Positions 1,935 to 28,657 of a stretch of DNA of 36,440 nt are shown one piece after another. The stretch spans positions 1 through 36,440 of IMG/VR virus record IMGVR_UViG_2778261172_000005. One strand, written 5' to 3'. Made by a program: the position numbers and the translations under genes. The stretch comes from a virus. Its lineage: Duplodnaviria; Heunggongvirae; Uroviricota; Caudoviricetes. Under the pieces are notes generated by a model. The model ran no database searches and was not told the origin of the DNA. It was given only the letters and a program-made list of their open reading frames with translations. How positions within the stretch are numbered: position 1 is the stretch's first letter; each line of letters begins with the position of its first letter.

Positions 1935-3098
1935 TCACTCATCATCTTCTGTTTCGTACTCCACATCAGAAAGCCTGACCTCAAGCTCCAAGGACGTCGT
2001 GAAGCCGCTATTATTCAGAAAATGTGTCACCTTAGTGATTGTCCAGTCCTGCTCGTCTATGACGCGCTTAAAGCCTGACACTTTGACCGACGTTTCCGTG
2101 TAAATATCTGCCCGACCGGTAGCCAGACTGATGGAGAACTCCGCGACGCCCCGTTGCAGTTTGTCCCACTTCGCCTGAGCGGCGCGCATGGCCTGCGCTT
2201 TCGTGGCATATACCGTGGTCAGGGCAAAAACGTTGTCAGCCTCACCGGCCATGTATTCACCTTCGCGCGCTTCCGGTACTTTTGGCGCTTTCTTCTGCGT
2301 GACTGGTTTCGCTTTCGGGTGCTCCAGTGCGCGCAGGTGTTTTTCTTTCTTTTTGCGTTTCAGTTTTACCTTCTGCTTTTGCGGCTTCGGGTCTTTGGTG
2401 TGAAGCCACTTTGCCGTTACGCCGGTATAGGCTCCACGGTCAGCAATCGCAAAATGGTGGCGGTCGCCGTCGCTGCGGGTTATGGTGACCTGCGGGATTT
2501 TTTTACCGCTGGCCGTCACCCCCTGCCCCGCTTTGAGAAACAACAGTTTTCCCATTTTTACCGAGACCTCACCACCGTTGCGTTCTGCAAGACGGGTCAG
2601 GAATTTCGCATCAGACTCCTGCGACTGGTCGATGTGCGGGATTTTAATTCCTGCCAGTGACGGCGCGACACTGGCTTCCAGCCTGTTACGGGAGGCTATC
2701 GCCTCAACAATCGCACCGAGCGTGGTGTCATGCCAGGAGCCTTCACGGCGGGAATTGAGCGTCCCGCGAAAATCTGCACTCCGGGCGCGGATGGTAACCA
2801 CATCCGGTGCGCCCCGGTGTTCAACCTCATCAACGGTGAATTTCCCTTTGCATACCAGGGCAAAACCTTTCCAGCCGATATACACCGTCAGGACAGCGCC
2901 ACGAACCGGCAGCCCGACCTGCCCGTCGGCATCGTTCAGTTCAATATCAAGCTGGTCAGCCTCAAAGCCCCGGTTATCCGTCAGGGTCATGCTCATCAGA
3001 CGGTCGCTGATATTGCCGGTAATATCCCTGCTGTCGAGCATCAGCATGTAATCCGGTGTCAGCGTACTGCCTGCATCAAATGTCAGCGCATCCAGCAT
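1935..3098 (-). CDS. D: Tail/late control protein gpD (387 aa)
   Basis: Size and position are identical to P2 D. It is the last gene of the FI-FII-E-T-U-D operon. Confidence 0.9.
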   Translation of the reverse strand: MLDALTFDAGSTLTPDYMLMLDSRDITGNISDRLMSMTLTDNRGFEADQLDIELNDADGQVGLPVRGAVLTVYIGWKGFALVCKGKFTVDEVEHRGAPDVVTIRARSADFRGTLNSRREGSWHDTTLGAIVEAIASRNRLEASVAPSLAGIKIPHIDQSQESDAKFLTRLAERNGGEVSVKMGKLLFLKAGQGVTASGKKIPQVTITRSDGDRHHFAIADRGAYTGVTAKWLHTKDPKPQKQKVKLKRKKKEKHLRALEHPKAKPVTQKKAPKVPEAREGEYMAGEADNVFALTTVYATKAQAMRAAQAKWDKLQRGVAEFSISLATGRADIYTETSVKVSGFKRVIDEQDWTITKVTHFLNNSGFTTSLELEVRLSDVEYETEDDE

Positions 3099-3577
3099 TA
3101 TCCCGCCCCCGTCATACCCGTGAATTTAGTCGCCATACTGCCAGCCTTACCGATGAGCGATTCCGCCTGTTTACCTATATCGCCATAAAGCGCGGCCAGT
3201 GATTCATCAACGCGGGTAAGTGACAGCGTAAAATCAATTTTCCGGGGTGTGCCGTCTGCAAAGAAAATACTCCCTGTTTCACTCACCCTGCTGATGACAT
3301 ACATGCCGTAAATCATGCCGGTGCCATCCAGCAACGGCCACGCCCGGCCTTCCTCTGCCATCAGCCTGAGCGTGGTCATCGTCAGCTTGCCGCCGGTCAG
3401 TTCTGGATAAAGCACACCGGCAAGCGTGATGTTTTCCTCACCCACACCGAGAAACTGAAAGGCATCCCGTTTACCGATACGGGAATTTGACGGCCAGCGA
3501 TAATCTGATTCACGCTGCATGGTCTGGTGTGGCAGCGTCTGGCGCATAAAAACAAACATACCTAACGCGAGCATCAT
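3098..3577 (-). CDS. U: Tail protein gpU (159 aa)
   Basis: P2-collinear and 159 aa, with a 1-nt overlap with D. Confidence 0.9.
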   Translation of the reverse strand: MMLALGMFVFMRQTLPHQTMQRESDYRWPSNSRIGKRDAFQFLGVGEENITLAGVLYPELTGGKLTMTTLRLMAEEGRAWPLLDGTGMIYGMYVISRVSETGSIFFADGTPRKIDFTLSLTRVDESLAALYGDIGKQAESLIGKAGSMATKFTGMTGAG

Positions 3578-7046: not shown

Positions 7047-8237
7047 TTAATTGCTGTTAACCGAGGTGACCAGATTTGCCAGGTATTTATCGGTAATACG
7101 CTGGCGCAGGGTCAGGTTTTCAAGAGGAGGCACCGGTGTATAGTCGTAGTCGATATACAGTTTTCCGGCCTTGAGGGTTTCCGCATCGTTGGATTCTTCG
7201 CTGAACCAGCAGGTCGCATCCACGATATAGCCGTTTGTTTTCAGCTCACGGAATTTGGCATTGATGCCGTCAACGATGTCGCGAATCAGCGTTGCGGTGA
7301 TGGGCTTGTCCACCGCCCACATGTGCGCCTCAGCCATCGTGTCGGCCAGCACCTGCGCGGTGCGGGTGTAGTTTTCAAAGAGGAACAGCGGGTCATCAGA
7401 GCAGGTACGGTTACCCCAGAATCGGAAACCGTCGCGGCGAATAATCGTAGTGACGCCTGACTCGTTCAACAGGTCAGCATCGGTGCCGGACTCCTGCAAA
7501 TCCCAGAATACAGAAGCACTGATGCCGGTAACACCGTTTACCCCGACATTGGACAGCGTTTTATGCCAGCCCTGCTCCTGGTCGATTTTAGCGCGCAGAC
7601 CCAGCGCACGGGCGGTGGCATACGCGGTGGCGGTGGAGCTGCTGACCGTATCCCATGCGAGGAAATCCGGCCAGATGACCATCAGCTCACGCTGGCTGAA
7701 ATTCTGGCGGTAGGCTTTCACCTCGGAAATGGTTTTACAGCCCCATGCGCTGATATACCCGAAAGCGCGCAGCTTCTGACAGACTGATGCCAGTGCAACA
7801 GCCACCTCTTTGGTGTCCAGTCCCGGCACGCCGAGAATACGCGGTTTAACACCGGTTACTGACTCCGCCGCCAGCAGGGCTTTCAGTCCGGTGTACTGAC
7901 CGTTTTCGTCGGTGGTGCCGATGATATTGGAAACGGTCTGCGCGAGTTTCGTTTCTTCGTCTTCGCCGGTGCCGTCTTCCACACGCACGACAACGGTGAC
8001 CGGTTTTGACTGGTCGGCGATGGCCTGTAACGATGCCGCCAGCGTGCCTTTTTTACCGGCCTTTGCAATTGCGCTCTGGGCATTGGTAATCAGCACAGGT
8101 TTATTGAGGGGGAAGGTTTCCGCATCCGCATCGCTGGCCGTGCAGACCATGCCGACAATGGCAGTGGATACGGTGGAAATGACGCGGGTGCCGTCGTTAA
8201 TCTCCAGCACCTGCACGCCATGATGATAGTCACTCAT
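7047..8237 (-). CDS. FI: Contractile tail sheath protein gpFI (396 aa)
   Basis: P2-collinear, 396 aa, with SD GGAG 6 nt upstream of the ATG. Confidence 0.9.
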   Translation of the reverse strand: MSDYHHGVQVLEINDGTRVISTVSTAIVGMVCTASDADAETFPLNKPVLITNAQSAIAKAGKKGTLAASLQAIADQSKPVTVVVRVEDGTGEDEETKLAQTVSNIIGTTDENGQYTGLKALLAAESVTGVKPRILGVPGLDTKEVAVALASVCQKLRAFGYISAWGCKTISEVKAYRQNFSQRELMVIWPDFLAWDTVSSSTATAYATARALGLRAKIDQEQGWHKTLSNVGVNGVTGISASVFWDLQESGTDADLLNESGVTTIIRRDGFRFWGNRTCSDDPLFLFENYTRTAQVLADTMAEAHMWAVDKPITATLIRDIVDGINAKFRELKTNGYIVDATCWFSEESNDAETLKAGKLYIDYDYTPVPPLENLTLRQRITDKYLANLVTSVNSN

Positions 8238-8420: not shown

Positions 8421-8459
8421 ATTCTGACAGTCTGCTTTGAGCGAAAAGTGGAAGTTCGC
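8421..8459 (+). repeat. Cargo-island repeat, copy C (inverted relative to copies A and B)
   Basis: ATTCTGACAGTCTGCTTTGAGCGAAAAGTGGAAGTTCGC aligns with the reverse complements of 11051-11092 and 9894-9934. In the core there are 22 of 26 matches to copy B. It shares GAAGTT(C)GC with copy A. Confidence 0.7.
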
Positions 8460-8581: not shown

Positions 8582-8604
8582 AAAAAAAACCGGCTTACAC
8601 CGGT
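8582..8604 (-). terminator. Rho-independent terminator of the 305-aa gene
   Basis: On the minus strand, ACCGG-TGTAAG-CCGGT followed by TTTTTTTT. It lies 58 nt past the stop codon. Confidence 0.7.
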
Positions 8605-8661
8605 TTAAACTCGCTCGCGAGAATCACCCCCCAAATTATATGCAAAATTAAAAATACCAAT

Positions 8662-9579
8662 TCACTCCATTTCTCTTTTGGCTAATTCTTCCCATTCGTC
8701 GATTGAGTTATTATAAGGAAATACCTCTTTAACTATGAAAGGAATGTAGCTTTCTTCAGCATTGTGATGTATTTCATTACTGATATTACTTGTGATTCCG
8801 AATTTTACGTCAGGATCGTTTTCAGAGAAATGTATATGAAAAGGTTGTTGACCTAAAGCCTGTCTAATTTTATTTGCTTGTTCTGATGGAAGGACTTTAA
8901 GTAGCTGTTTGAATGTTTTTTTATTAAAGTCTAGAGAAATGGCCATATCAATATCTCCGGGTATCATAGATATGCACGTGTATGACCGTTCGCTCAATCG
9001 ACTAATAAATTTAGTATTTATAGCAGGGGCACTAAAAGAACCATCTTTAACCAAACCCATTTTTCGAATATGAATTCCAAAATCAGGTGCATAACTCAAG
9101 ACATCCGGATTGGCTTTAATATCTGGATTTAATATCCTAAATAATTTTTCCCAGTAATTACCAATGTCTTTCAAAGAAAATCTGAGTATTGGGTGGAGTT
9201 CCCGTATACTATATAGAACAAATTCATTCCCATTGCACAATGCATACATTTCTGCCCTTATTTCTGGATGTATAGCATAACTATAGGCTTGCTCAACGTG
9301 CATGCTTTTGGTTATTTTTTCATTAGGGGCCTTTGCATCAAGAATCCAATATGGTCGGTCGTTAGAAAGAAAAACATAATCCGGTACTATTGAAATCTTT
9401 CTTGGCTGTGAACCTATTGAGACAAATGGATGTGTAAGCGTTTTGCTCCTGATTACACGACTATCTCCCGATGCTTTATAACCAAGAGCTTTAATAATTG
9501 GTAAAATCAACTCTTCTCTGACTGAATCCTCTTTAAATTCATCTGAGCTTAGTAAGTTAAAATCAAAATCATCAAACAT
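8662..9579 (-). CDS. PD-(D/E)xK nuclease-fold protein with an HsdR-N-terminal-like domain and an unassigned C-terminal half (305 aa)
   Basis: N-terminal pattern EELILPIIKALGYK...IVPDYVF...WILDAKAP...VEQAYSYA...ALCNGNEFVLYS fits the type I restriction R-subunit N-terminal (Mrr-like) nuclease fold, with D, D-A-K and Q signatures. The gene is AT-rich, has its own terminator and sits at the Z/fun position. I am confident it is coding and less sure of the family. Confidence 0.7.
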   Translation of the reverse strand: MFDDFDFNLLSSDEFKEDSVREELILPIIKALGYKASGDSRVIRSKTLTHPFVSIGSQPRKISIVPDYVFLSNDRPYWILDAKAPNEKITKSMHVEQAYSYAIHPEIRAEMYALCNGNEFVLYSIRELHPILRFSLKDIGNYWEKLFRILNPDIKANPDVLSYAPDFGIHIRKMGLVKDGSFSAPAINTKFISRLSERSYTCISMIPGDIDMAISLDFNKKTFKQLLKVLPSEQANKIRQALGQQPFHIHFSENDPDVKFGITSNISNEIHHNAEESYIPFIVKEVFPYNNSIDEWEELAKREME

Positions 9580-9593
9580 ATCCCCCCCACATA

Positions 9594-9623
9594 TATTTAT
9601 TTGACAAAAGATGTATAATTCAA
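9594..9623 (-). promoter_or_regulatory. Candidate sigma70 promoter for the 305-aa gene: -35 TTGAAT (9623-9618), 18-nt spacer, -10 TAAATA (9599-9594)
   Basis: Read on the minus strand directly upstream of a G7 Shine-Dalgarno-like run and the ATG at 9579. This is only a hexamer match. Confidence 0.3.
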
Positions 9624-9893
9624 ATTATTCAGAGCCATTGTAAATCACTATAGAATAAAAAGATAATTTCAAGTGGAGGTGTTATCTGATTTTTTGATTT
9701 ATAGCACAAAAAACGACCTCTACAGGCTGTTTATTACGATAGTTAAAGCTGATCACATTTAGGCAGTCAGTCCAAGATGCTCTCTTCAACATGGCCTAGG
9801 TTTTTTTACCGTCGAAGAAGATAATTGTGTCCATAGCATGATGCTTTCAAGTGGTATGATCTCTTTCTCAGTGATTCATGCAGTATGAGCCTA

Positions 9894-9934
9894 GCAACTT
9901 CTGCTTCTGGCACAGGGCGGACTTTCTGACTGAG
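9894..9934 (-). repeat. Cargo-island repeat, copy A (internal, same orientation as B)
   Basis: Plus strand GCAACTTCTGCTTCTGGCACAGGGCGGACTTTCTGACTGAG aligns with 11051-11092. The shared stretch CTGCTT(C/T)TGGCACAG(G/A)GCGGACT is nearly identical. Confidence 0.7.
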
Positions 9935-10085
9935 TTGAAGGTCTGCTGCGACCGAATATCGGACATTAATAACCTCAGAGACATAGCGCCCTTGAAATGC
10001 ACCCCTCCAGAAATGAAAATCTGTTATGATACTAGCATAAACTATTTATTTTTCAGTAAAGTTTAGAAAACAAATTTTTATGAAT

Positions 10086-10112
10086 AGAAAAAAGGAGAAC
10101 AATGCCCTCCTT
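10086..10112 (-). terminator. Candidate terminator of the DUF2971-like gene
   Basis: On the minus strand, AAGGAG-GGCATTGTT-CTCCTT followed by TTTTTCT. It lies about 20 nt past the stop. The stem is short (6 bp). Confidence 0.45.
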
Positions 10113-10130
10113 CTTTATTTTTAAATTCTA

Positions 10131-10859
10131 CTACAATTTAATTTTTAGTCTTTTAGGAGCATCGTATAGAGTAGATATTTTTATTTCGGCTTTACAACCC
10201 TTATCCTCAATTGCCAATGTGTATGCCTGCCTTAAGTTTTTTTCCATTCTTGGGTCAAATAGCACGGTGTCTAATAGTTCAACTGGATTAATTTCAAACT
10301 GGAAAATATCATTATCGACACTATTATCATCACCAGAATATATTAAACGAACTTCGCTTTCGTGTTCAAACTCCACGCGTTTGTATAAAAGCGATTCAGC
10401 AATGCCTGAGCCATTAGTGTTGAATAAATCAATTGACAAGAGTTTTTCCGAAAGAGTATCCTCCGGAAGATAAGAAACCTTGCCTATAAAACACCTTAAA
10501 TTATGGTAAGTCGGCTCTGCTTTTTGAAGTGCGGCTAATAGTTTTCTTGGTGTGGTTGAAACTCTTACACCATTTTTATCATGGGAATATATCCGCCACA
10601 TTGCATCGGTTTCACTATGAAATGTCCAGCATTGCCCATAAACAGAATCTCTTGCGGCAACTGTTCCTGTTTGACCATCAGAAGTTTCAATTACACAATT
10701 TAATAAAGCGTTCTCAAAAGGGTCATCCCATTTTCTTGGTTTTACTAAAGTTAATTTTTTTTCTTCAAGCAATTGAAGAAAACGGTGTATTGGCATAATT
10801 CTATAAATAGGTATATCCAATGATTCATCTGTTAAATTAATATAGTTATTATAGCTCAT
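10131..10859 (-). CDS. DUF2971-like protein (242 aa)
   Basis: The motif order matches my memory of DUF2971: IYRIMPIHRFLQLLEEKKLTLVKPRKWDDPFE, then GQCWTFHSETDAMWRIYSHDKNGVRV, then LLYKRVEFEHESEVRLIY. The gene is strongly AT-rich and sits at the Z/fun position. Confidence 0.65.
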   Translation of the reverse strand: MSYNNYINLTDESLDIPIYRIMPIHRFLQLLEEKKLTLVKPRKWDDPFENALLNCVIETSDGQTGTVAARDSVYGQCWTFHSETDAMWRIYSHDKNGVRVSTTPRKLLAALQKAEPTYHNLRCFIGKVSYLPEDTLSEKLLSIDLFNTNGSGIAESLLYKRVEFEHESEVRLIYSGDDNSVDNDIFQFEINPVELLDTVLFDPRMEKNLRQAYTLAIEDKGCKAEIKISTLYDAPKRLKIKL

Positions 10860-11050
10860 ACATATTGACCTTTTGGTAGTTAGTGTAATTAAAAAGGCGG
10901 TTGGGATATTTTAGCAAAAACCTAAGAACTGATTCAACCCTGCGGACTTACAGATTTCAGTTCATATATCCAATGTTATAAATTCTCATTTATGAACTAT
11001 TCTCCTAAAATTTTTTGATTTCAATCTTTAGAGAGCGCAAAAGACCTATG

Positions 11051-11107
11051 TTCGAATGACTGCTTTTGGCACAGAGCGGACTGTCAGATTAGGCTTTACT
11101 CTGTGCC
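11051..11107 (-). repeat. Cargo-island repeat, copy B (11051-11092), with an associated 9-bp-arm hairpin GGCACAGAG / CTCTGTGCC (11068-11076 and 11099-11107)
   Basis: It lies immediately downstream of the G stop (11143). See copies A and C for the alignments. Confidence 0.7.
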
Positions 11108-11142: not shown

Positions 11143-11670
11143 TTATTGCGGCATTTCCGGCCATTCAGGATTTGCAGGATCCACACGACTGACCAGAACG
11201 CTGTAGCGTTCCCAAGCCTCCAGCCGTGTGCGCTCCTCCTCTGTTGCCATGTTCAGTCTGACCGCGCGCTCCAGCGGCAAAATCACGGATTCAGCATCTG
11301 CAAGAAGTCTGGCTTTCCGAATTTCTGCCTGCTGCTGTAATTCCTCTGCCGTATAAATGCGTTTAATCACTTTGCCGTCCTTAAACATCCAGCCCCCTGA
11401 AATATCCGCCCGTCGGTTAGCAGTAATATCCGCCACTTCAACCACACTTAATCCATCCGGTCTGATAGCTGTCACATCCTTTTCCACATAGCGGATGATA
11501 TTATCTTTGTCGTACGCTATTTTTATCGTGTCATCAGCAAAATACTTTTGTTCTTCGTACCAGTTCTTACCATCTTCTGTAAAAAACCAGACAACATCAA
11601 AGCCCTTTGTCAATTGATATTGTTCAACTGTTTTTGGATTACCCGCCGTTATATTTATCAAATGCTGCAT
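11143..11670 (-). CDS. G: Tail fibre assembly chaperone gpG (175 aa)
   Basis: P2-collinear, 175 aa, directly downstream of H. Confidence 0.85.
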
Positions 11671-11673
11671 AAA

Positions 11674-13992
11674 TTATACCTGCGCTACGTTATACCATGT
11701 CCCGTTAATGTATTTCTGCACCGGTCTGTAATATATGCCACCAATGTTATCGGCAGAGTTTGAGCCGGTATCCTGAACAATAATGCCGGAATATACACAC
11801 CCGGACGGTGCCTGATGTGTCCATGTCATGCCATTGTTCGCAGGTTTGTATGTGGCAGCACCACCAAGCCGGATATCCCGGACATAGCGTGAATCAAAGT
11901 TGCCATAGTTAGATGGTGATACCTGCCCGTTAACAGCAAAAGTGATGCTGTTATCTGTATTTCTCTGACTGTAAAAATGCCAGCCTGCATCATCACCTAA
12001 TTCAGCCACCACCGGACGACTTGAGTTTCCCCACAAATTGAATGCGGCTTCCTTCGTGGATGTATTACTGCTGCTGACCGTGAATTTTTTCCCGCTACCG
12101 GCACGTACTTTGGTACTTGAGACAATATCACCAGTAACATTCAGGCCATGCCCCATTGATACAGCACCAGTGGCATCATTTATAATCAGCGGTCTTAAAT
12201 TATTATAAGTGCCTAATCTGTCACCTGATTTAGTCAACATAAAATAAGTGCTGCTGCCATCATTCCTGATAAAGAAACCATAATTGCCATAAGCAATGCG
12301 CAGACCATTAGCACTGAGTGATGTAATCTCACCTCTTGAACGGAGACCATAAGCGGAGCTGAGTGATAATTCTTCCTGAGCATCAGTATTACCAGTCGCC
12401 CAACGAACTACCCCGCCCTGTACTGTTTCATGCCAGATAGTGTCTCCTTCTCCACCACGAAACTTTCTGAGATATTTTTTGCCGCCTCTTGTGCCTGAAC
12501 ATAAGGCCGTAGACATATAGGCATTCTGGCTTCCACCGTCCTGATTAATCGTTCCGGTCATTGCGTCGCCCTGACGATTCCAGTCACGACGCCAGCCGGG
12601 GGAGTAGCCGTCCCCATGATTAATGTAAGTGAATTGTGCGCTGGTTGTACCGCCACCGCTTGATGTTGTCGGCGTGGTCACTCGGATAGTGATTGCAGAT
12701 TTAGTTCCCATGACCTCGACGACACAACCAGCCAGGTGGATATCACCACATCCGGTATCCGTAATGATTTTGTTATTTGCATATGACCAGGAGCCTTTGC
12801 ACATCCAGTACGGATGATTAAATGCACCACGGGAATCCAGCCATTCAATAAACTGAGCGGTTGTCCAGTTTCCGGCTTCAGTGCTCAAAGCGCCGCTATA
12901 AGCACGACAGGCACCGATATTTTTCGTGAAGGTATCCTTTCCCGGAATATCCGCACCATTCTGATCTTTCTGAAGACGTTTTTCAGCATTGTCATAGGCA
13001 GACTTCACCGCTTTTGATGTTGCGGCCAGCGTTTCAGAATCACTGTTGGTGGCGCTACTGAGCTGGACAAGCCCTTTTCGCGCCGTGGTGGCATCCTGTG
13101 CAGTGTATTTCCCGTTAGCAAGGTCATACGCAGCCTTTACCGCCTTTGGCGTTGCCGCAAGCGTTTCAGCCGTGCTGTTAGTGGCACTACTGAGCTGGAC
13201 AAGGCCTTTTCGCGCTATGGTGGCGTCCTGTGCGGTATATTTCCCGTTAGCAAGGTCATACGCGGCCTTTACCGCTTTCGGCGTTGCGGCTAGCGTTTCA
13301 GACGTGCTGTTGGTCACACTACTGAGCTGAACAAGGCCTTTTCGCGCCGTGGTGGCATCCTGCGCAGTATATTTCCCGTTAGCAAGGTCATAGGCGGCCT
13401 TTACCGCTTTCGGCGTTGCGGCCAGTGTTTCAGACGTGCTGTTGGTCGCACTGCTTAACTGAGTAAAACCTTTTGCGGTCAGCGAGGCGTCCGGGTGACG
13501 TCGTGACTGTTCGTGCTCTGCAATTTTGTCATCAACGTAATCCTGCGTTGCCATCACCGTTGTGGTGTCAATGGTCAGCTCCACTGAGGCCACACTGCTG
13601 ACGATGATGACCATGCGGCAGGTCTGCGAACGCCCTGAGCCTTCGGCAAGAGCTGGCTTATAACTTTCGGCCATGTTCGCCACGGCAATTAACGTTCCCG
13701 CATCATCGTACAGGCCAAGCTCACGCATCCAGAAACCGCCCACCTCCGGCGGAATAACCAGCTCTGCGATAATATAATTACTGTTTCGTTTGTCCTGACT
13801 GATTTTGTTCAGCGCATGTCGCCAGACTTCGTGGATAAGCCCGGTCTGTCCGGCATCCGGGACAGGCAATTTACCACCGCCATCCCCGACGGCCATCGTG
13901 GTAATGTTGACCTTCCGCCCTTCCGGCGCGGTTGCCGCTGCCAGCTTTGCTGCACCGGCAGTGGTGATAACGGTTCTGAATTTTGTGCTCAT
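11674..13992 (-). CDS. H: Tail fibre protein gpH (772 aa)
   Basis: It has the conserved P2-type N-terminus (MSTKFRTVITTAGAAKLAAATAP...). It is longer than my recollection of P2 H (669 aa) because of tandem repeats and a different C-terminal receptor-binding part. Confidence 0.9.
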   Translation of the reverse strand: MSTKFRTVITTAGAAKLAAATAPEGRKVNITTMAVGDGGGKLPVPDAGQTGLIHEVWRHALNKISQDKRNSNYIIAELVIPPEVGGFWMRELGLYDDAGTLIAVANMAESYKPALAEGSGRSQTCRMVIIVSSVASVELTIDTTTVMATQDYVDDKIAEHEQSRRHPDASLTAKGFTQLSSATNSTSETLAATPKAVKAAYDLANGKYTAQDATTARKGLVQLSSVTNSTSETLAATPKAVKAAYDLANGKYTAQDATIARKGLVQLSSATNSTAETLAATPKAVKAAYDLANGKYTAQDATTARKGLVQLSSATNSDSETLAATSKAVKSAYDNAEKRLQKDQNGADIPGKDTFTKNIGACRAYSGALSTEAGNWTTAQFIEWLDSRGAFNHPYWMCKGSWSYANNKIITDTGCGDIHLAGCVVEVMGTKSAITIRVTTPTTSSGGGTTSAQFTYINHGDGYSPGWRRDWNRQGDAMTGTINQDGGSQNAYMSTALCSGTRGGKKYLRKFRGGEGDTIWHETVQGGVVRWATGNTDAQEELSLSSAYGLRSRGEITSLSANGLRIAYGNYGFFIRNDGSSTYFMLTKSGDRLGTYNNLRPLIINDATGAVSMGHGLNVTGDIVSSTKVRAGSGKKFTVSSSNTSTKEAAFNLWGNSSRPVVAELGDDAGWHFYSQRNTDNSITFAVNGQVSPSNYGNFDSRYVRDIRLGGAATYKPANNGMTWTHQAPSGCVYSGIIVQDTGSNSADNIGGIYYRPVQKYINGTWYNVAQV
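12991..13473 (-). repeat. In-frame tandem repeat inside H: about 3.7 copies of a 132-nt (44-aa) unit
   Basis: The unit KG(L/F)(V/T)QLSS(A/V)TNS(T/D)(S/A)ETLAAT(P/S)KAVK(A/S)AYDLANGKYTAQDAT(T/I)AR repeats over aa 174-334. The 132-nt period is visible in the DNA (e.g. CTACTGAGCTGGACAAG at about 13056 and 13188). Confidence 0.9.
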
Positions 13993-16495: not shown

Positions 16496-17251
16496 TTAGT
16501 TGTAGCACTTCTCTATAATCTTCATACACTCCTCATGAGCTAAATCATGGCTGTCAAATTCTTTATTAAAAAAGAAGAAAAACGCCTTATTAACCTGAGG
16601 TATTTCAATAAAAATAAATTCATCAGCCTTATGAAAGAAATGAAAACTCTTGTTTGATGTTTCAAAAACCATCAAAGAATTATGTTTTTTATCCTTCCAT
16701 TTCGACATCAGATTGCTTCGCGATTTTCGTATAATCCTGAAGACATCCCCCGGCGTCGTATCGACATCCCCCCAAAACATTGCAACCGGGAAGTTTGCAA
16801 GAAAAGGGATATAATCACCCCCTTTATACCTGAGAAAGCGGGTCCGTAAATCCATTAATTGCAACTTAAAGCCCATGTATTGCAACCACCATATGATGCA
16901 ATCATATTCATAATCTGTTAACTCATCCCCCCTCTTTTCCGTAAGAAATTTCTTCAGGTTATACTCAAACACTCCCAGCAAATCAGAATTGCACACTCTG
17001 CATGCTGGTACAGTGACTTTAATGTAATGAGTTGACTGATTATTCTTTTTATTAATTAAAGATTTTTCAGCATTTGACTCAAAGGCCCACTGAGGAATAA
17101 TGTGCTCACGAGTAATATCGTCAGAGCTCCCGCATAACACACATATATCAGCATTATGGTCAGCAATAATACAATCCATAACTTTCTTTTGAGAATGCTT
17201 TACTCTTTTTCTCAAAATGGAAAACTTTTTATCCACAAACACCCGTCTCAT
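16496..17251 (-). CDS. HNH-type endonuclease-domain protein (251 aa) with an unassigned C-terminal two thirds
   Basis: Motif pattern CVLCGSSDDITREHIIPQW...THYIKVTVPACRVCNSDL, i.e. CxxC...EH..P...CxxCN. The gene is very AT-rich compared with its neighbours S and V. ATGA overlap with the S stop (17248-17251). It sits where P2 carries the non-essential orf30. Confidence 0.7.
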   Translation of the reverse strand: MRRVFVDKKFSILRKRVKHSQKKVMDCIIADHNADICVLCGSSDDITREHIIPQWAFESNAEKSLINKKNNQSTHYIKVTVPACRVCNSDLLGVFEYNLKKFLTEKRGDELTDYEYDCIIWWLQYMGFKLQLMDLRTRFLRYKGGDYIPFLANFPVAMFWGDVDTTPGDVFRIIRKSRSNLMSKWKDKKHNSLMVFETSNKSFHFFHKADEFIFIEIPQVNKAFFFFFNKEFDSHDLAHEECMKIIEKCYN

Positions 17252-26975: not shown

Positions 26976-27521
26976 ATGATAAATATTAATGAAGAAATTA
27001 ATAATTCTTTCGATGAGTTTGATGAGGAGGATAAACAGCAAGCTTACTTATCTTTCTTTAAAAATAGTTTCCCTTTTTTACTTTGCCCAACTCTATTCAA
27101 ACGCAGTGAAGATCTCCCTCAATTAAATTGGGTGAAAGTAAAATATACTGAGCATGCGGCTCATACTTTCCCAAATCAACAGGGAGTATATATGTTTATG
27201 GTTGGTTTCGAAAGCACTAAGCTCCCCAATAATTCATATGTTATGTATGTAGGAAAGGCCGGCGATACTAATTCCAACAACACAATCTGCAAAAGGTTTA
27301 AAGATTACGTTAATCCATCTGGATTTAGAGACAGGCCCAGAGTTAAGAAACTCATTCAGCATTTTAGTGAGCATTTATATTATTACTATGCAACACTCCC
27401 AACAGGGCAATCCACAGCAGATGTTGAATCCACTTTAGCCGATATTTTCGCACCACCTTGTTGTCAACGAGATTTTTCAGCTAATGTGCGAAGCTTATTG
27501 AGAGGAGTTAGAATTATATGA
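26976..27521 (+). CDS. GIY-YIG-like nuclease-domain protein with an acidic N-terminus (181 aa)
   Basis: QGVYMFMV-x11-SYVMYVGKAG...ICKRFKDY...YYYYATL...ADVESTLADIFAPP follows the GIY...YIG...R...E order of GIY-YIG catalytic cores. The gene is AT-rich. Its stop overlaps the next ATG (ATGA at 27518-27521). Confidence 0.6.
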   Translation: MININEEINNSFDEFDEEDKQQAYLSFFKNSFPFLLCPTLFKRSEDLPQLNWVKVKYTEHAAHTFPNQQGVYMFMVGFESTKLPNNSYVMYVGKAGDTNSNNTICKRFKDYVNPSGFRDRPRVKKLIQHFSEHLYYYYATLPTGQSTADVESTLADIFAPPCCQRDFSANVRSLLRGVRII

Positions 27522-28657
27522 ATCAACGTTTAGTCCTTCCATGTTTGAGAGGCTATATGGGGAGCTGGATTACATATAGTTGCATGATGAGACTTTCAGA
27601 TGCATCCAATTTGATCGGGTTTGCTGAGGAACTCCATCAAATTGATAAATTGTCAGACAAAATACAACGTGAATTAAATAATGATAGGGCTGAAGAAATC
27701 TCTCATTATTTGGTTAGCAATGATGATCGCTTCTTTAACTCATTAGTTGTAGCTGTTTATGATGGCGATCCAAATTGGCATGAAATTGGAGGAATAACTC
27801 CAAACAATGAAGAAGCCTCTTTGCTTGATTTTCCTGAGTATGCAGGGAATTGCATTGGTTTTTTATCCATTACAAGAGATGAAAAATTTTTTGCACTTGA
27901 TGGACAACATCGCTTAGCTGGCATCAAAGCTGCTCTTAAAGTTAATAGCGATATTGCTGATGATCTAATTAGCGTTATTATTGTTGCTCATGCTAATACG
28001 CCAGAAGGTAAAGTAAGATCCAGAAGATTATTTACCACTTTAAATAAAAAGGCAAAATTAGTTAGTAAAGATACCATTATAGCTTTAGATGAGGATGATA
28101 TAGCAGCATGCATAACAAGACGTCTAATTGAGGCAGAGGATTTCATATACTTCAATGAAGATAACGTATCCTTTAACTCTGGTCCTGTTAGAGATAAAAC
28201 GAGCATCACATCTATTGTTAATATATATGATAATGTTCAGAAGTTAGTAGCATATAAATTAGGTGTTAAAATTACCGAGTTGGAAAGATACAAGTATAAA
28301 GATCATATTGACATATACAACTTCATTTCTAATTTTTATAGCTACACATTCGAAGGATGTGAAGAGTTAATCAAAGTAGCTAAAGGTGAACAACCTGCTG
28401 GATTTTATAGAAATTCCGAAACTGGTGGGCATATTTTGTTTAGACCTATTGGTTGGGATTTATATACAGATATAGTACTCTATGCCATGACTCATTTTAA
28501 TCATGACCTTAAAAAGGCAATTCAACACATCACCAAACACAATCTAAACATGTCTGGCTCTATTCTATCCAACAAAGTTTGGTCAACAAAACAAAAGAAA
28601 ATCCTTAAGATAAGTGCTAAAAACATAAAAGCAATACAAAAAAGTTTGTTATCATAA
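27518..28657 (+). CDS. DGQHR-domain (DndB-like, ParB/Srx-fold) protein (379 aa)
   Basis: It carries the literal motif FALDGQHRLAGIK followed by RRLFTTLNKKAKLVS, the signature of the DGQHR/DndB family. The gene is AT-rich and translationally coupled to the upstream ORF. Confidence 0.75.
   Translation: MNQRLVLPCLRGYMGSWITYSCMMRLSDASNLIGFAEELHQIDKLSDKIQRELNNDRAEEISHYLVSNDDRFFNSLVVAVYDGDPNWHEIGGITPNNEEASLLDFPEYAGNCIGFLSITRDEKFFALDGQHRLAGIKAALKVNSDIADDLISVIIVAHANTPEGKVRSRRLFTTLNKKAKLVSKDTIIALDEDDIAACITRRLIEAEDFIYFNEDNVSFNSGPVRDKTSITSIVNIYDNVQKLVAYKLGVKITELERYKYKDHIDIYNFISNFYSYTFEGCEELIKVAKGEQPAGFYRNSETGGHILFRPIGWDLYTDIVLYAMTHFNHDLKKAIQHITKHNLNMSGSILSNKVWSTKQKKILKISAKNIKAIQKSLLS

Follow-up and report, generated by a model that had tools for sequence, protein, structure and literature searches.

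What does a lone AT-rich gene do among the tail genes of a P2-like prophage, and does it act by itself or together with the nuclease-like gene that lies next to it? The question arises from the 36,440-nt virus record IMGVR_UViG_2778261172_000005 (Caudoviricetes; hereafter the window, by which we mean this whole stretch of DNA), which is a P2-like prophage with 100% identity to Escherichia coli JNEC-KY180 (NZ_AP045177.1) over the 2.9 kb queried. The gene encodes a 242-aa protein and occupies the Z/fun locus of phage P2, between the tail-fibre assembly gene G (11143-11670, minus strand) and the tail-sheath gene FI (7047-8237, minus strand). We consider it fairly likely that it is a mobile one-gene cassette in the Z/fun hotspot and that its product is a single-gene anti-phage effector of the abortive infection (Abi) type, with an ADP-ribosyltransferase (ART) fold.

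Family membership and predicted fold

The gene is the following open reading frame (ORF):

10131-10859, minus strand: 242-aa ORF with an ATG start, matching DUF2971 and the PADLOC candidate system PDC-S31, with a predicted DarT-like ART fold

A preliminary description of this DNA had placed the gene at 10086-10859; the ORF is real, but the stretch that starts at 10086 is a downstream hairpin and not coding, and the coding sequence spans 10131-10859. The strong AT-richness reported there was borne out, with a G+C content of 0.326-0.336 over 10001-11000 against 0.54-0.58 in the flanking tail genes, and the 2.6-kb cargo stretch as a whole lies at 33-37% G+C, compared with 54-58% in those genes. 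Given the number of its homologues, it is not a chance ORF: 972 were found at E <= 1e-5 and, counted as clusters at 50% identity, 8090 at E <= 1e-3 and 738 at E <= 1e-30. The RefSeq label of the product is DUF2971 domain-containing protein (WP_052903811.1).

The PADLOC model PDLC04993 (PDC-S31) covers residues 3-241 of the 242 (E 1.1e-94, 314 bits), and the subfamily is thus already catalogued in PADLOC as candidate PDC-S31. The Pfam model of DUF2971 (PF11185), which the preliminary description had proposed as a check, is matched over its full length (model positions 1-89, residues 87-172, E 3.3e-5) at 25.6 bits, narrowly above the gathering cut-off of 22. The three motif blocks that had been read in DUF2971 order are all present, namely RKWDDPFE (residues 42-49), CWTFHSETDAMWRIYS...GVRV (residues 77-100) and FEHESEVRL (residues 164-172), and all three fall on invariant columns of the family alignments; the first lies outside the Pfam model because the DUF2971 match spans residues 87-172 only. 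In a 70-sequence alignment (A5), D46, W88, Y130, K160, E167, E169 and R171 are invariant. The protein further carries conserved extra elements, an N-terminal WDDPFEN and a C-terminal FDPR and S..LY..P.

The gene had been described as belonging to a family with no characterised function, which no longer holds: in Lactococcus, the DUF2971 protein Aristaios has been validated as an anti-phage system that consists of one gene (PMC11381338), and a bioinformatic survey classes the DUF2971 family as DarT-like ADP-ribosyltransferases (PMC12522546). In the predicted structure of the 242-aa protein an ART core fold is present, and the best fold matches by both search methods are DNA ARTs, with DarT nearest. 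The closest folds are DarT, Tpt1, scabin and pierisin, which act on nucleic acids, while a fold search of BFVD returned only uncharacterised phage proteins. The invariant E167-x-E169 is the candidate for motif III, with a strand at residues 169-175 that follows a long 132-168 region, an assignment made from position in the secondary structure and not from residue-level superposition. At the sequence level, a Pfam scan at E <= 1 gave DUF2971 only and profile searches against PDB sequences did not return DarT; the matches to ENaC and ribosomal protein L3 in these profile searches were rejected as chance.

The fold could also be ART-like without ADP-ribose transfer, the protein being a Tpt1/KptA-type RNA 2'-phosphotransferase-like enzyme, an NAD+ glycohydrolase or a non-catalytic binder. 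We regard this as unlikely: as read from the alignment, the invariant acidic residues at the motif III position argue for catalysis, and the best matches by both methods are, as said, DNA ARTs.

A cassette with its own signals

Around the ORF we identified three elements on the same strand:

10908-10937, minus strand: candidate sigma-70 promoter, TTGAAT-18 nt-TAAAAT with an upstream TG (TTGAAT-18-TGcTAAAAT)
10083-10114, minus strand: hairpin and U-run, 17 nt past the stop codon, with an A-tract upstream and thus the shape of a bidirectional intrinsic terminator
9956-10082, minus strand: non-coding 3' tail, which shows about 75-80% conservation in Yersinia, Serratia, Rouxiella and E. coli SE11

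The candidate promoter is conserved in the Proteus, Yersinia, Serratia and Rouxiella copies of the cassette, and an AAAAGG ribosome-binding site lies directly 5' of the ATG. The candidate terminator that had been ascribed to the gene is not listed by a consensus terminator scan, but it folds well, with an 11-bp stem followed by the U-run (-15.3 kcal/mol, z -3.5; one of 200 shuffles folds as well), and it is kept in seven of seven loci (six of them homologous cassettes in other genera) at -9.7 to -17.5 kcal/mol. The stem sequences differ between loci, as in GGAGGGC/GUUCUCC in the window and GGAACUCA/UGAGUUCC in Rouxiella, and a hairpin kept with different stems is the pattern that would be expected of a selected structure. 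Nucleotide homology to foreign contexts exceeds the ORF on both sides, reaching 10935-11073 upstream and 10076-10090 or 9930-9950 downstream. Judged from these signals, the gene appears to be a self-contained one-gene cassette of about 1.1 kb (~9930-11072) with promoter, ORF and terminator. Late-operon read-through into the ORF in lytic growth is nevertheless possible, because the interval from gene G (stop at 11143) to the ORF has no terminator-like site in the scan.

Past the terminator, about 130 nt are conserved about as strongly as the coding region in five genera. Together with the closest fold, DarT, being a toxin of a toxin-antitoxin (TA) system, this conservation in the absence of an ORF would suit a different role, that of toxin in an addiction module by which the mobile element is stabilised, with an unrecognised antitoxin such as a small RNA or peptide in the 3' tail; the bidirectional shape of the terminator would suit a convergent small transcript. 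The tail itself speaks against this, as no ORF is kept across the compared loci, Rfam gives no match and the weak alifold consensus (-6.4 kcal/mol, with a single compensatory pair) lends no covariation support to an RNA structure. Moreover, Proteus homology stops just past the terminator, leaving that copy without a tail, the Yersinia copy has the terminator and aligns less well with the tail, and a candidate plus-strand promoter at 9992-10020 is not conserved. An addiction module therefore seems quite improbable to us, although TA function and Abi-type defence are not mutually exclusive.

The hotspot and the genomic contexts of homologues

The claim that this locus is a P2 defence hotspot proved correct: Vassallo et al. 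2022 documented the fun locus as a second defence-enriched locus of P2-like phages, with fun and three validated systems (PMC9519451). The better-known hotspot described by Rousset et al. 2022 lies elsewhere, between gpA and gpQ (PMC9122126). The flanks of the locus are common to about 1021 of 5426 complete E. coli genomes and enclose varied cargo, including RES, HNH, SIR2, SMEK, DUF4145, S1 peptidase and many hypothetical proteins; only one of the genomes with these flanks has the exact cargo of the window.

Outside this prophage lineage, close homologues (71-90% identity) occur in a CP4-like island of E. coli SE11, in the mutS-rpoS region of Proteus with IS110, in a lambdoid prophage of Yersinia, in a P4-like satellite of Serratia and in a prophage-like region of Pantoea, and the flanking genes are different in every enterobacterial context. 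In the P4-like satellite hotspot the homologue lies beside Abi_C, and further homologues are found in free-living bacteria of many phyla (Nitrosomonas, Scalindua, Bacteroidota), where they adjoin restriction-modification (R-M), MADS and Mokosh genes. Among the neighbours at 80 homologue loci there is no conserved family: the 280 genes found beside homologues in 80 species form 258 clusters, and the largest of these, HsdM, is present at six loci. The contexts of homologues, for which a check for defence genes had been suggested, are rich in such genes: two sets of neighbours within two genes on either side match 163 and 285 PADLOC models, compared with 6 in a far control (E <= 1e-8), in counts of models rather than proteins that are inflated by redundancy (~20 models are type I methyltransferases) and that derive from crude ORF calls.

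These contexts also bear on the idea that the protein is an ART of lysogenic conversion or host manipulation rather than of defence, like Alt, ModA and ModB of T4 or the proposed secreted DUF2971 effectors of Legionella. About 18% of DUF2971 proteins are predicted effectors (PMC12522546), ExE motifs are common in protein-targeting ART toxins, and virulence cargo such as cytolethal distending toxin is also found in P2 hotspots (PMC9122126). Set against this are the homologues in free-living bacteria of many phyla beside R-M, MADS and Mokosh, the gene in the P4-like satellite hotspot beside Abi_C, and the lack of secretion-system genes in the contexts inspected, and we hold a host-manipulating role to be decidedly unlikely.

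Two further loci with relatives of the gene were noted. In E. coli O8:H8 16F5M1D1 (NZ_AP019856.1; positions 1942-3299 of locus L084), the Z/fun slot holds a distant 261-aa DUF2971 protein, matched by another PDC-S31 model (PDLC04990, E 3.9e-47), followed by a 161-aa protein without a match; the fold family has therefore been recruited independently to the same hotspot. In three Neisseria species (L012, L020 and L022, ~10001-10708), the homologue adjoins the same ABC-transporter genes (NMT1-like binding protein, permease and ATPase) and may be an insertion fixed at one chromosomal site in the genus.

One gene or two

Downstream of the cassette lies the second gene of the slot:

8662-9579, minus strand: 305-aa HsdR_N-like gene, with a leader at ~9580-9925 and a terminator at 8587-8606, judged independent of the DUF2971 unit

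Its coordinates bear out the 551 bp of spacing from the 242-aa ORF that had been reported. The product has an apparent PD-(D/E)xK motif, read off the sequence as PD67...D81-A-K83, and it resembles known families only weakly (Pfam HSDR_N at 22.8 bits, below the cut-off; the N-terminus of a PADLOC type IIG restriction endonuclease at E 9e-6). The preliminary description had left two options, a single-gene defence candidate or the second component of a system with this nuclease. As a two-gene system, the pair might combine a sensor or modifier with a nuclease effector, and the two genes are indeed direct neighbours that share a strand and a hotspot, with the 305-aa gene present in all contigs that have an identical 242-aa protein. 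Those contigs, however, all come from the same prophage lineage and so do not constitute independent evidence.

Beyond this lineage the two do not co-occur. The nuclease has no tblastn match in 81 loci with DUF2971 homologues and is missing beside the homologues of SE11, Proteus, Yersinia, Serratia and Pantoea; a 305-aa ORF beside the SE11 homologue was rejected as a relative of the nuclease (BLASTP E 1.8), the shared length being a coincidence. Conversely, nuclease homologues with 88-90% identity stand alone in a P4-like satellite of Enterobacter, beside an insertion sequence (IS) element, in a small Klebsiella integrase/resolvase islet and beside ParDE in Pectobacterium. Cassettes of the 305-aa type, whose single gene encodes about 295-305 aa, are widespread and stand by themselves in the P4-like satellite hotspot and in small islets; the window gene shares a leader of ~300-345 nt (9582-9925) with its relatives. 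Each of the two genes comes with a conserved leader or promoter and a terminator of its own, and their junction is marked by a repeat copy. From the co-occurrence, the cassette anatomy and the junction together, the independent acquisition proposed in the preliminary description is well supported, the single-gene option is strongly favoured, and a two-component system is very unlikely; the 305-aa gene is probably a separate stand-alone defence candidate.

Repeats at the cassette boundaries

The boundaries of both cassettes coincide with copies of a ~22-bp repeat:

11067-11088, plus strand: repeat copy A, marking the upstream end of the DUF2971 cassette on the inner side of the conserved P2 flank
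9908-9929, plus strand: repeat copy B, at the junction of both cassettes
9934-9955, minus strand: degenerate C-type copy (15 of 22 bases by our own comparison), which closes the DUF2971 cassette
8423-8444, minus strand: repeat copy C, in inverted orientation with respect to A, close to where the variable cargo ends

The interposed repeat copy that had been described is real: TGGCACAGGGCGGACTTTCTGA at 9908-9929 matches 11067-11088, where 0.01 matches would be expected by chance, and an inverted copy is present at 8423-8444. Homology to other P2 phages ends at 8448 and resumes at 11067, at copies C and A. Homology of the DUF2971 cassette to other loci stops at 9930-9950, that of the leader of the 305-aa gene to its relatives begins at 9884-9925, depending on the locus, and the cassettes thus meet at 9925-9930, exactly at copy B. 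A better-preserved version of the degenerate C-type copy occurs at the same place in the SE11 and Serratia cassettes, and the GenBank Z-region records AJ512676 and AJ512685 annotate a 'left' and a 'right inverted repeat' at the same places. The junction itself (9890-9965) was considered as a terminator and rejected, as its folding is no better than that of shuffled sequence (z +0.47).

More widely, Z/fun cargo genes are each bounded by imperfect inverted ~22-bp repeats, of an A type (TGGCACAGAGCGGACTGTCAGA) and a C type (TCGCTCAAAGCAGACTGTCAGA), with further copies in loci L002 (10005-10026), L093 (10905-10926), L100/L101 (7120-7141) and L104 (7063-7084). C-type copies are also found ~75-200 nt 3' of the same genes outside P2, in the SE11 island, the Serratia P4-like satellite, the Klebsiella islet and Pectobacterium, and in the last of these about 80 nt upstream of the 305-aa gene resemble the 3' end of P2 gene G. 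This pattern suggests cassette exchange through the ~22-bp repeats. A bolder version, to which we give little credence, would have the protein as a free-standing DarT-like nucleic-acid ART, activated by a phage cue without an antitoxin, whose gene moves as a ~22-bp-inverted-repeat mini-cassette by a dedicated site-specific exchange among P2 Z/fun hotspots, P4-like satellites, other prophages and islands, in an integron-like shuffling of single-gene defences.

Proposed mechanism and points against it

The reading as a single-gene Abi-type effector starts from what was observed above (the family membership, the ART fold, the invariant ExE, the cassette's own signals and the defence-rich neighbourhoods) and would proceed as follows. 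The lysogen would express the 242-aa gene from the cassette's own promoter, and phage infection would activate the enzyme, which would then use NAD+ to ADP-ribosylate its target, with catalysis assigned to E167-x-E169. Judged by the nearest folds, the target would be a nucleic acid; given the ExE motif and the effect of Aristaios on transcription, a protein of the transcription machinery, such as RNA polymerase, stays a live alternative. The outcome would be a block on phage transcription or replication that aborts the infection and shields the lysogen and its resident prophage from competing phages. Since there is no antitoxin gene, control before infection would be intrinsic or trigger-dependent, which is speculation on our part; our guess would be auto-inhibition by the WDDPFEN region or the C-terminal subdomain, a phage trigger or a phage-specific target.

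Several points weigh against this reading. The DUF2971 match, though above the cut-off, is marginal, and precomputed tables label it 'faint' or 'weak'. The link to DarT is purely structural: TM-scores are modest (0.42-0.50), with ~130-140 of the 242 residues superposing, and profile searches of PDB sequences with both the narrow (A1) and the broad (A5) alignments returned no ART. The NAD+-binding motifs are ambiguous, with R20 or H81 as candidates for motif I and C77-W-T79, Y91 or Y130 for motif II. ExE motifs are typical of protein-arginine ARTs, so that the target may be either a nucleic acid or a protein. DarT needs its antitoxin DarG, and with nothing equivalent at this locus either the control differs or the protein is not a toxin. 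The neighbour counts carry the redundancy described above, and a tblastn search of 50,697 deposited phage genomes found the gene in none. Lastly, PDC systems are explicitly candidates only (bioRxiv 10.1101/2024.01.29.577857), as are all members of the 242-aa subfamily.

Comparison with known systems

The closest catalogued system is PDC-S31 (Payne et al., 'guilt-by-embedding', bioRxiv 10.1101/2024.01.29.577857), with which the gene shares the full-length PDLC04993 match, the single-gene organisation (no obligatory partner occurs across the homologue loci) and homologues that lie within or adjoin defence systems, type I R-M among them. PDC-S31 is a candidate only, with no reported phenotype or mechanism, and its five HMMs span distant subfamilies; the copy in the window occupies a prophage hotspot, outside any R-M operon. 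Searching the literature for PDC-S31 or the protein accession numbers gave no match.

Functionally, the gene may be most like Aristaios of the Lactococcus plasmid pUCCL641 (PMC11381338, PMC13064643), which shares the DUF2971 domain, the predicted ART fold and the status of a single gene on a mobile element. In contrast to the window protein, Aristaios has 316 aa, comes from a plasmid of a Gram-positive host and has a measured Abi-like phenotype, interfering with phage transcription, while the window protein is known from sequence and model; catalysis is predicted in both, and the relationship, compared here by description, is probably distant. AbiGi, a component of lactococcal AbiG, is ART-like, a sequence-level relative of DUF2971 according to the survey in PMC12522546, and has a role in abortive infection; AbiG is a two-gene system, unlike the window gene, and the likeness of AbiGi is taken from the survey's description. 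The 242-aa protein is not a member of DarTG, because it has no detectable sequence similarity to DarT and there is no DarG macrodomain antitoxin gene nearby, its neighbours being the tail-fibre assembly gene and the HsdR_N-like nuclease; the extra WDDPFEN, FDPR and S..LY..P elements likewise set it apart from DarT. With P2 Z/fun and the PD systems of 'hotspot 2' (PMC9519451) it shares the slot between G and FI and the same inverted repeats, but their proteins are unrelated to it, the hotspot being defined by position and not by homology.

The gene thus adds one more candidate to a known kind, at a hotspot that was also known; it makes a good test case but does not represent a new type of system. 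New here are the evidence for an autonomous cassette, the structural link of the subfamily to DarT and the exclusion of the nuclease as a partner.

Other loci in the window

Three further loci of the window were noted. At the gpA-gpQ hotspot (the old/tin position), G+C drops to 32-42% across 26.5-29 kb, and an overlapping gene pair at 26976-28657 (plus strand) encodes a 181-aa protein without a family match and a 379-aa DndB-family protein (Pfam DndB E 7.5e-32; PADLOC DndB E 2.8e-20); no other dnd genes accompany the latter, and the pair may therefore be a candidate for a defence system of two genes. An AT-rich (37-40% G+C) 251-aa ORF at 16496-17251 (minus strand) is inserted between genes for baseplate and tail completion; its counterpart in RefSeq is annotated as a hypothetical protein, neither Pfam nor PADLOC gives a match, and the site may be a third moron slot. 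In the tail-fibre gene (11674-13992, minus strand), the translation of the region 12800-13500 contains four tandem copies of a ~40-aa motif (…SETLAATPKAVKAAYDLANGKYTAQDAT.ARKGLVQLSS…).

Implications

As the ~1.1-kb unit carries its native promoter and terminator, an experimental test would be simple. If the cassette protects against phage, the large proteobacterial DUF2971/PDC-S31 branch would gain its first validated member, and the cassette would provide an E. coli model of ART-fold defence without an antitoxin, beside DarTG and the lactococcal Aristaios. The two-cassette array at Z/fun shows prophage hotspots collecting single-gene defences from a pool that they share with satellites and islands.
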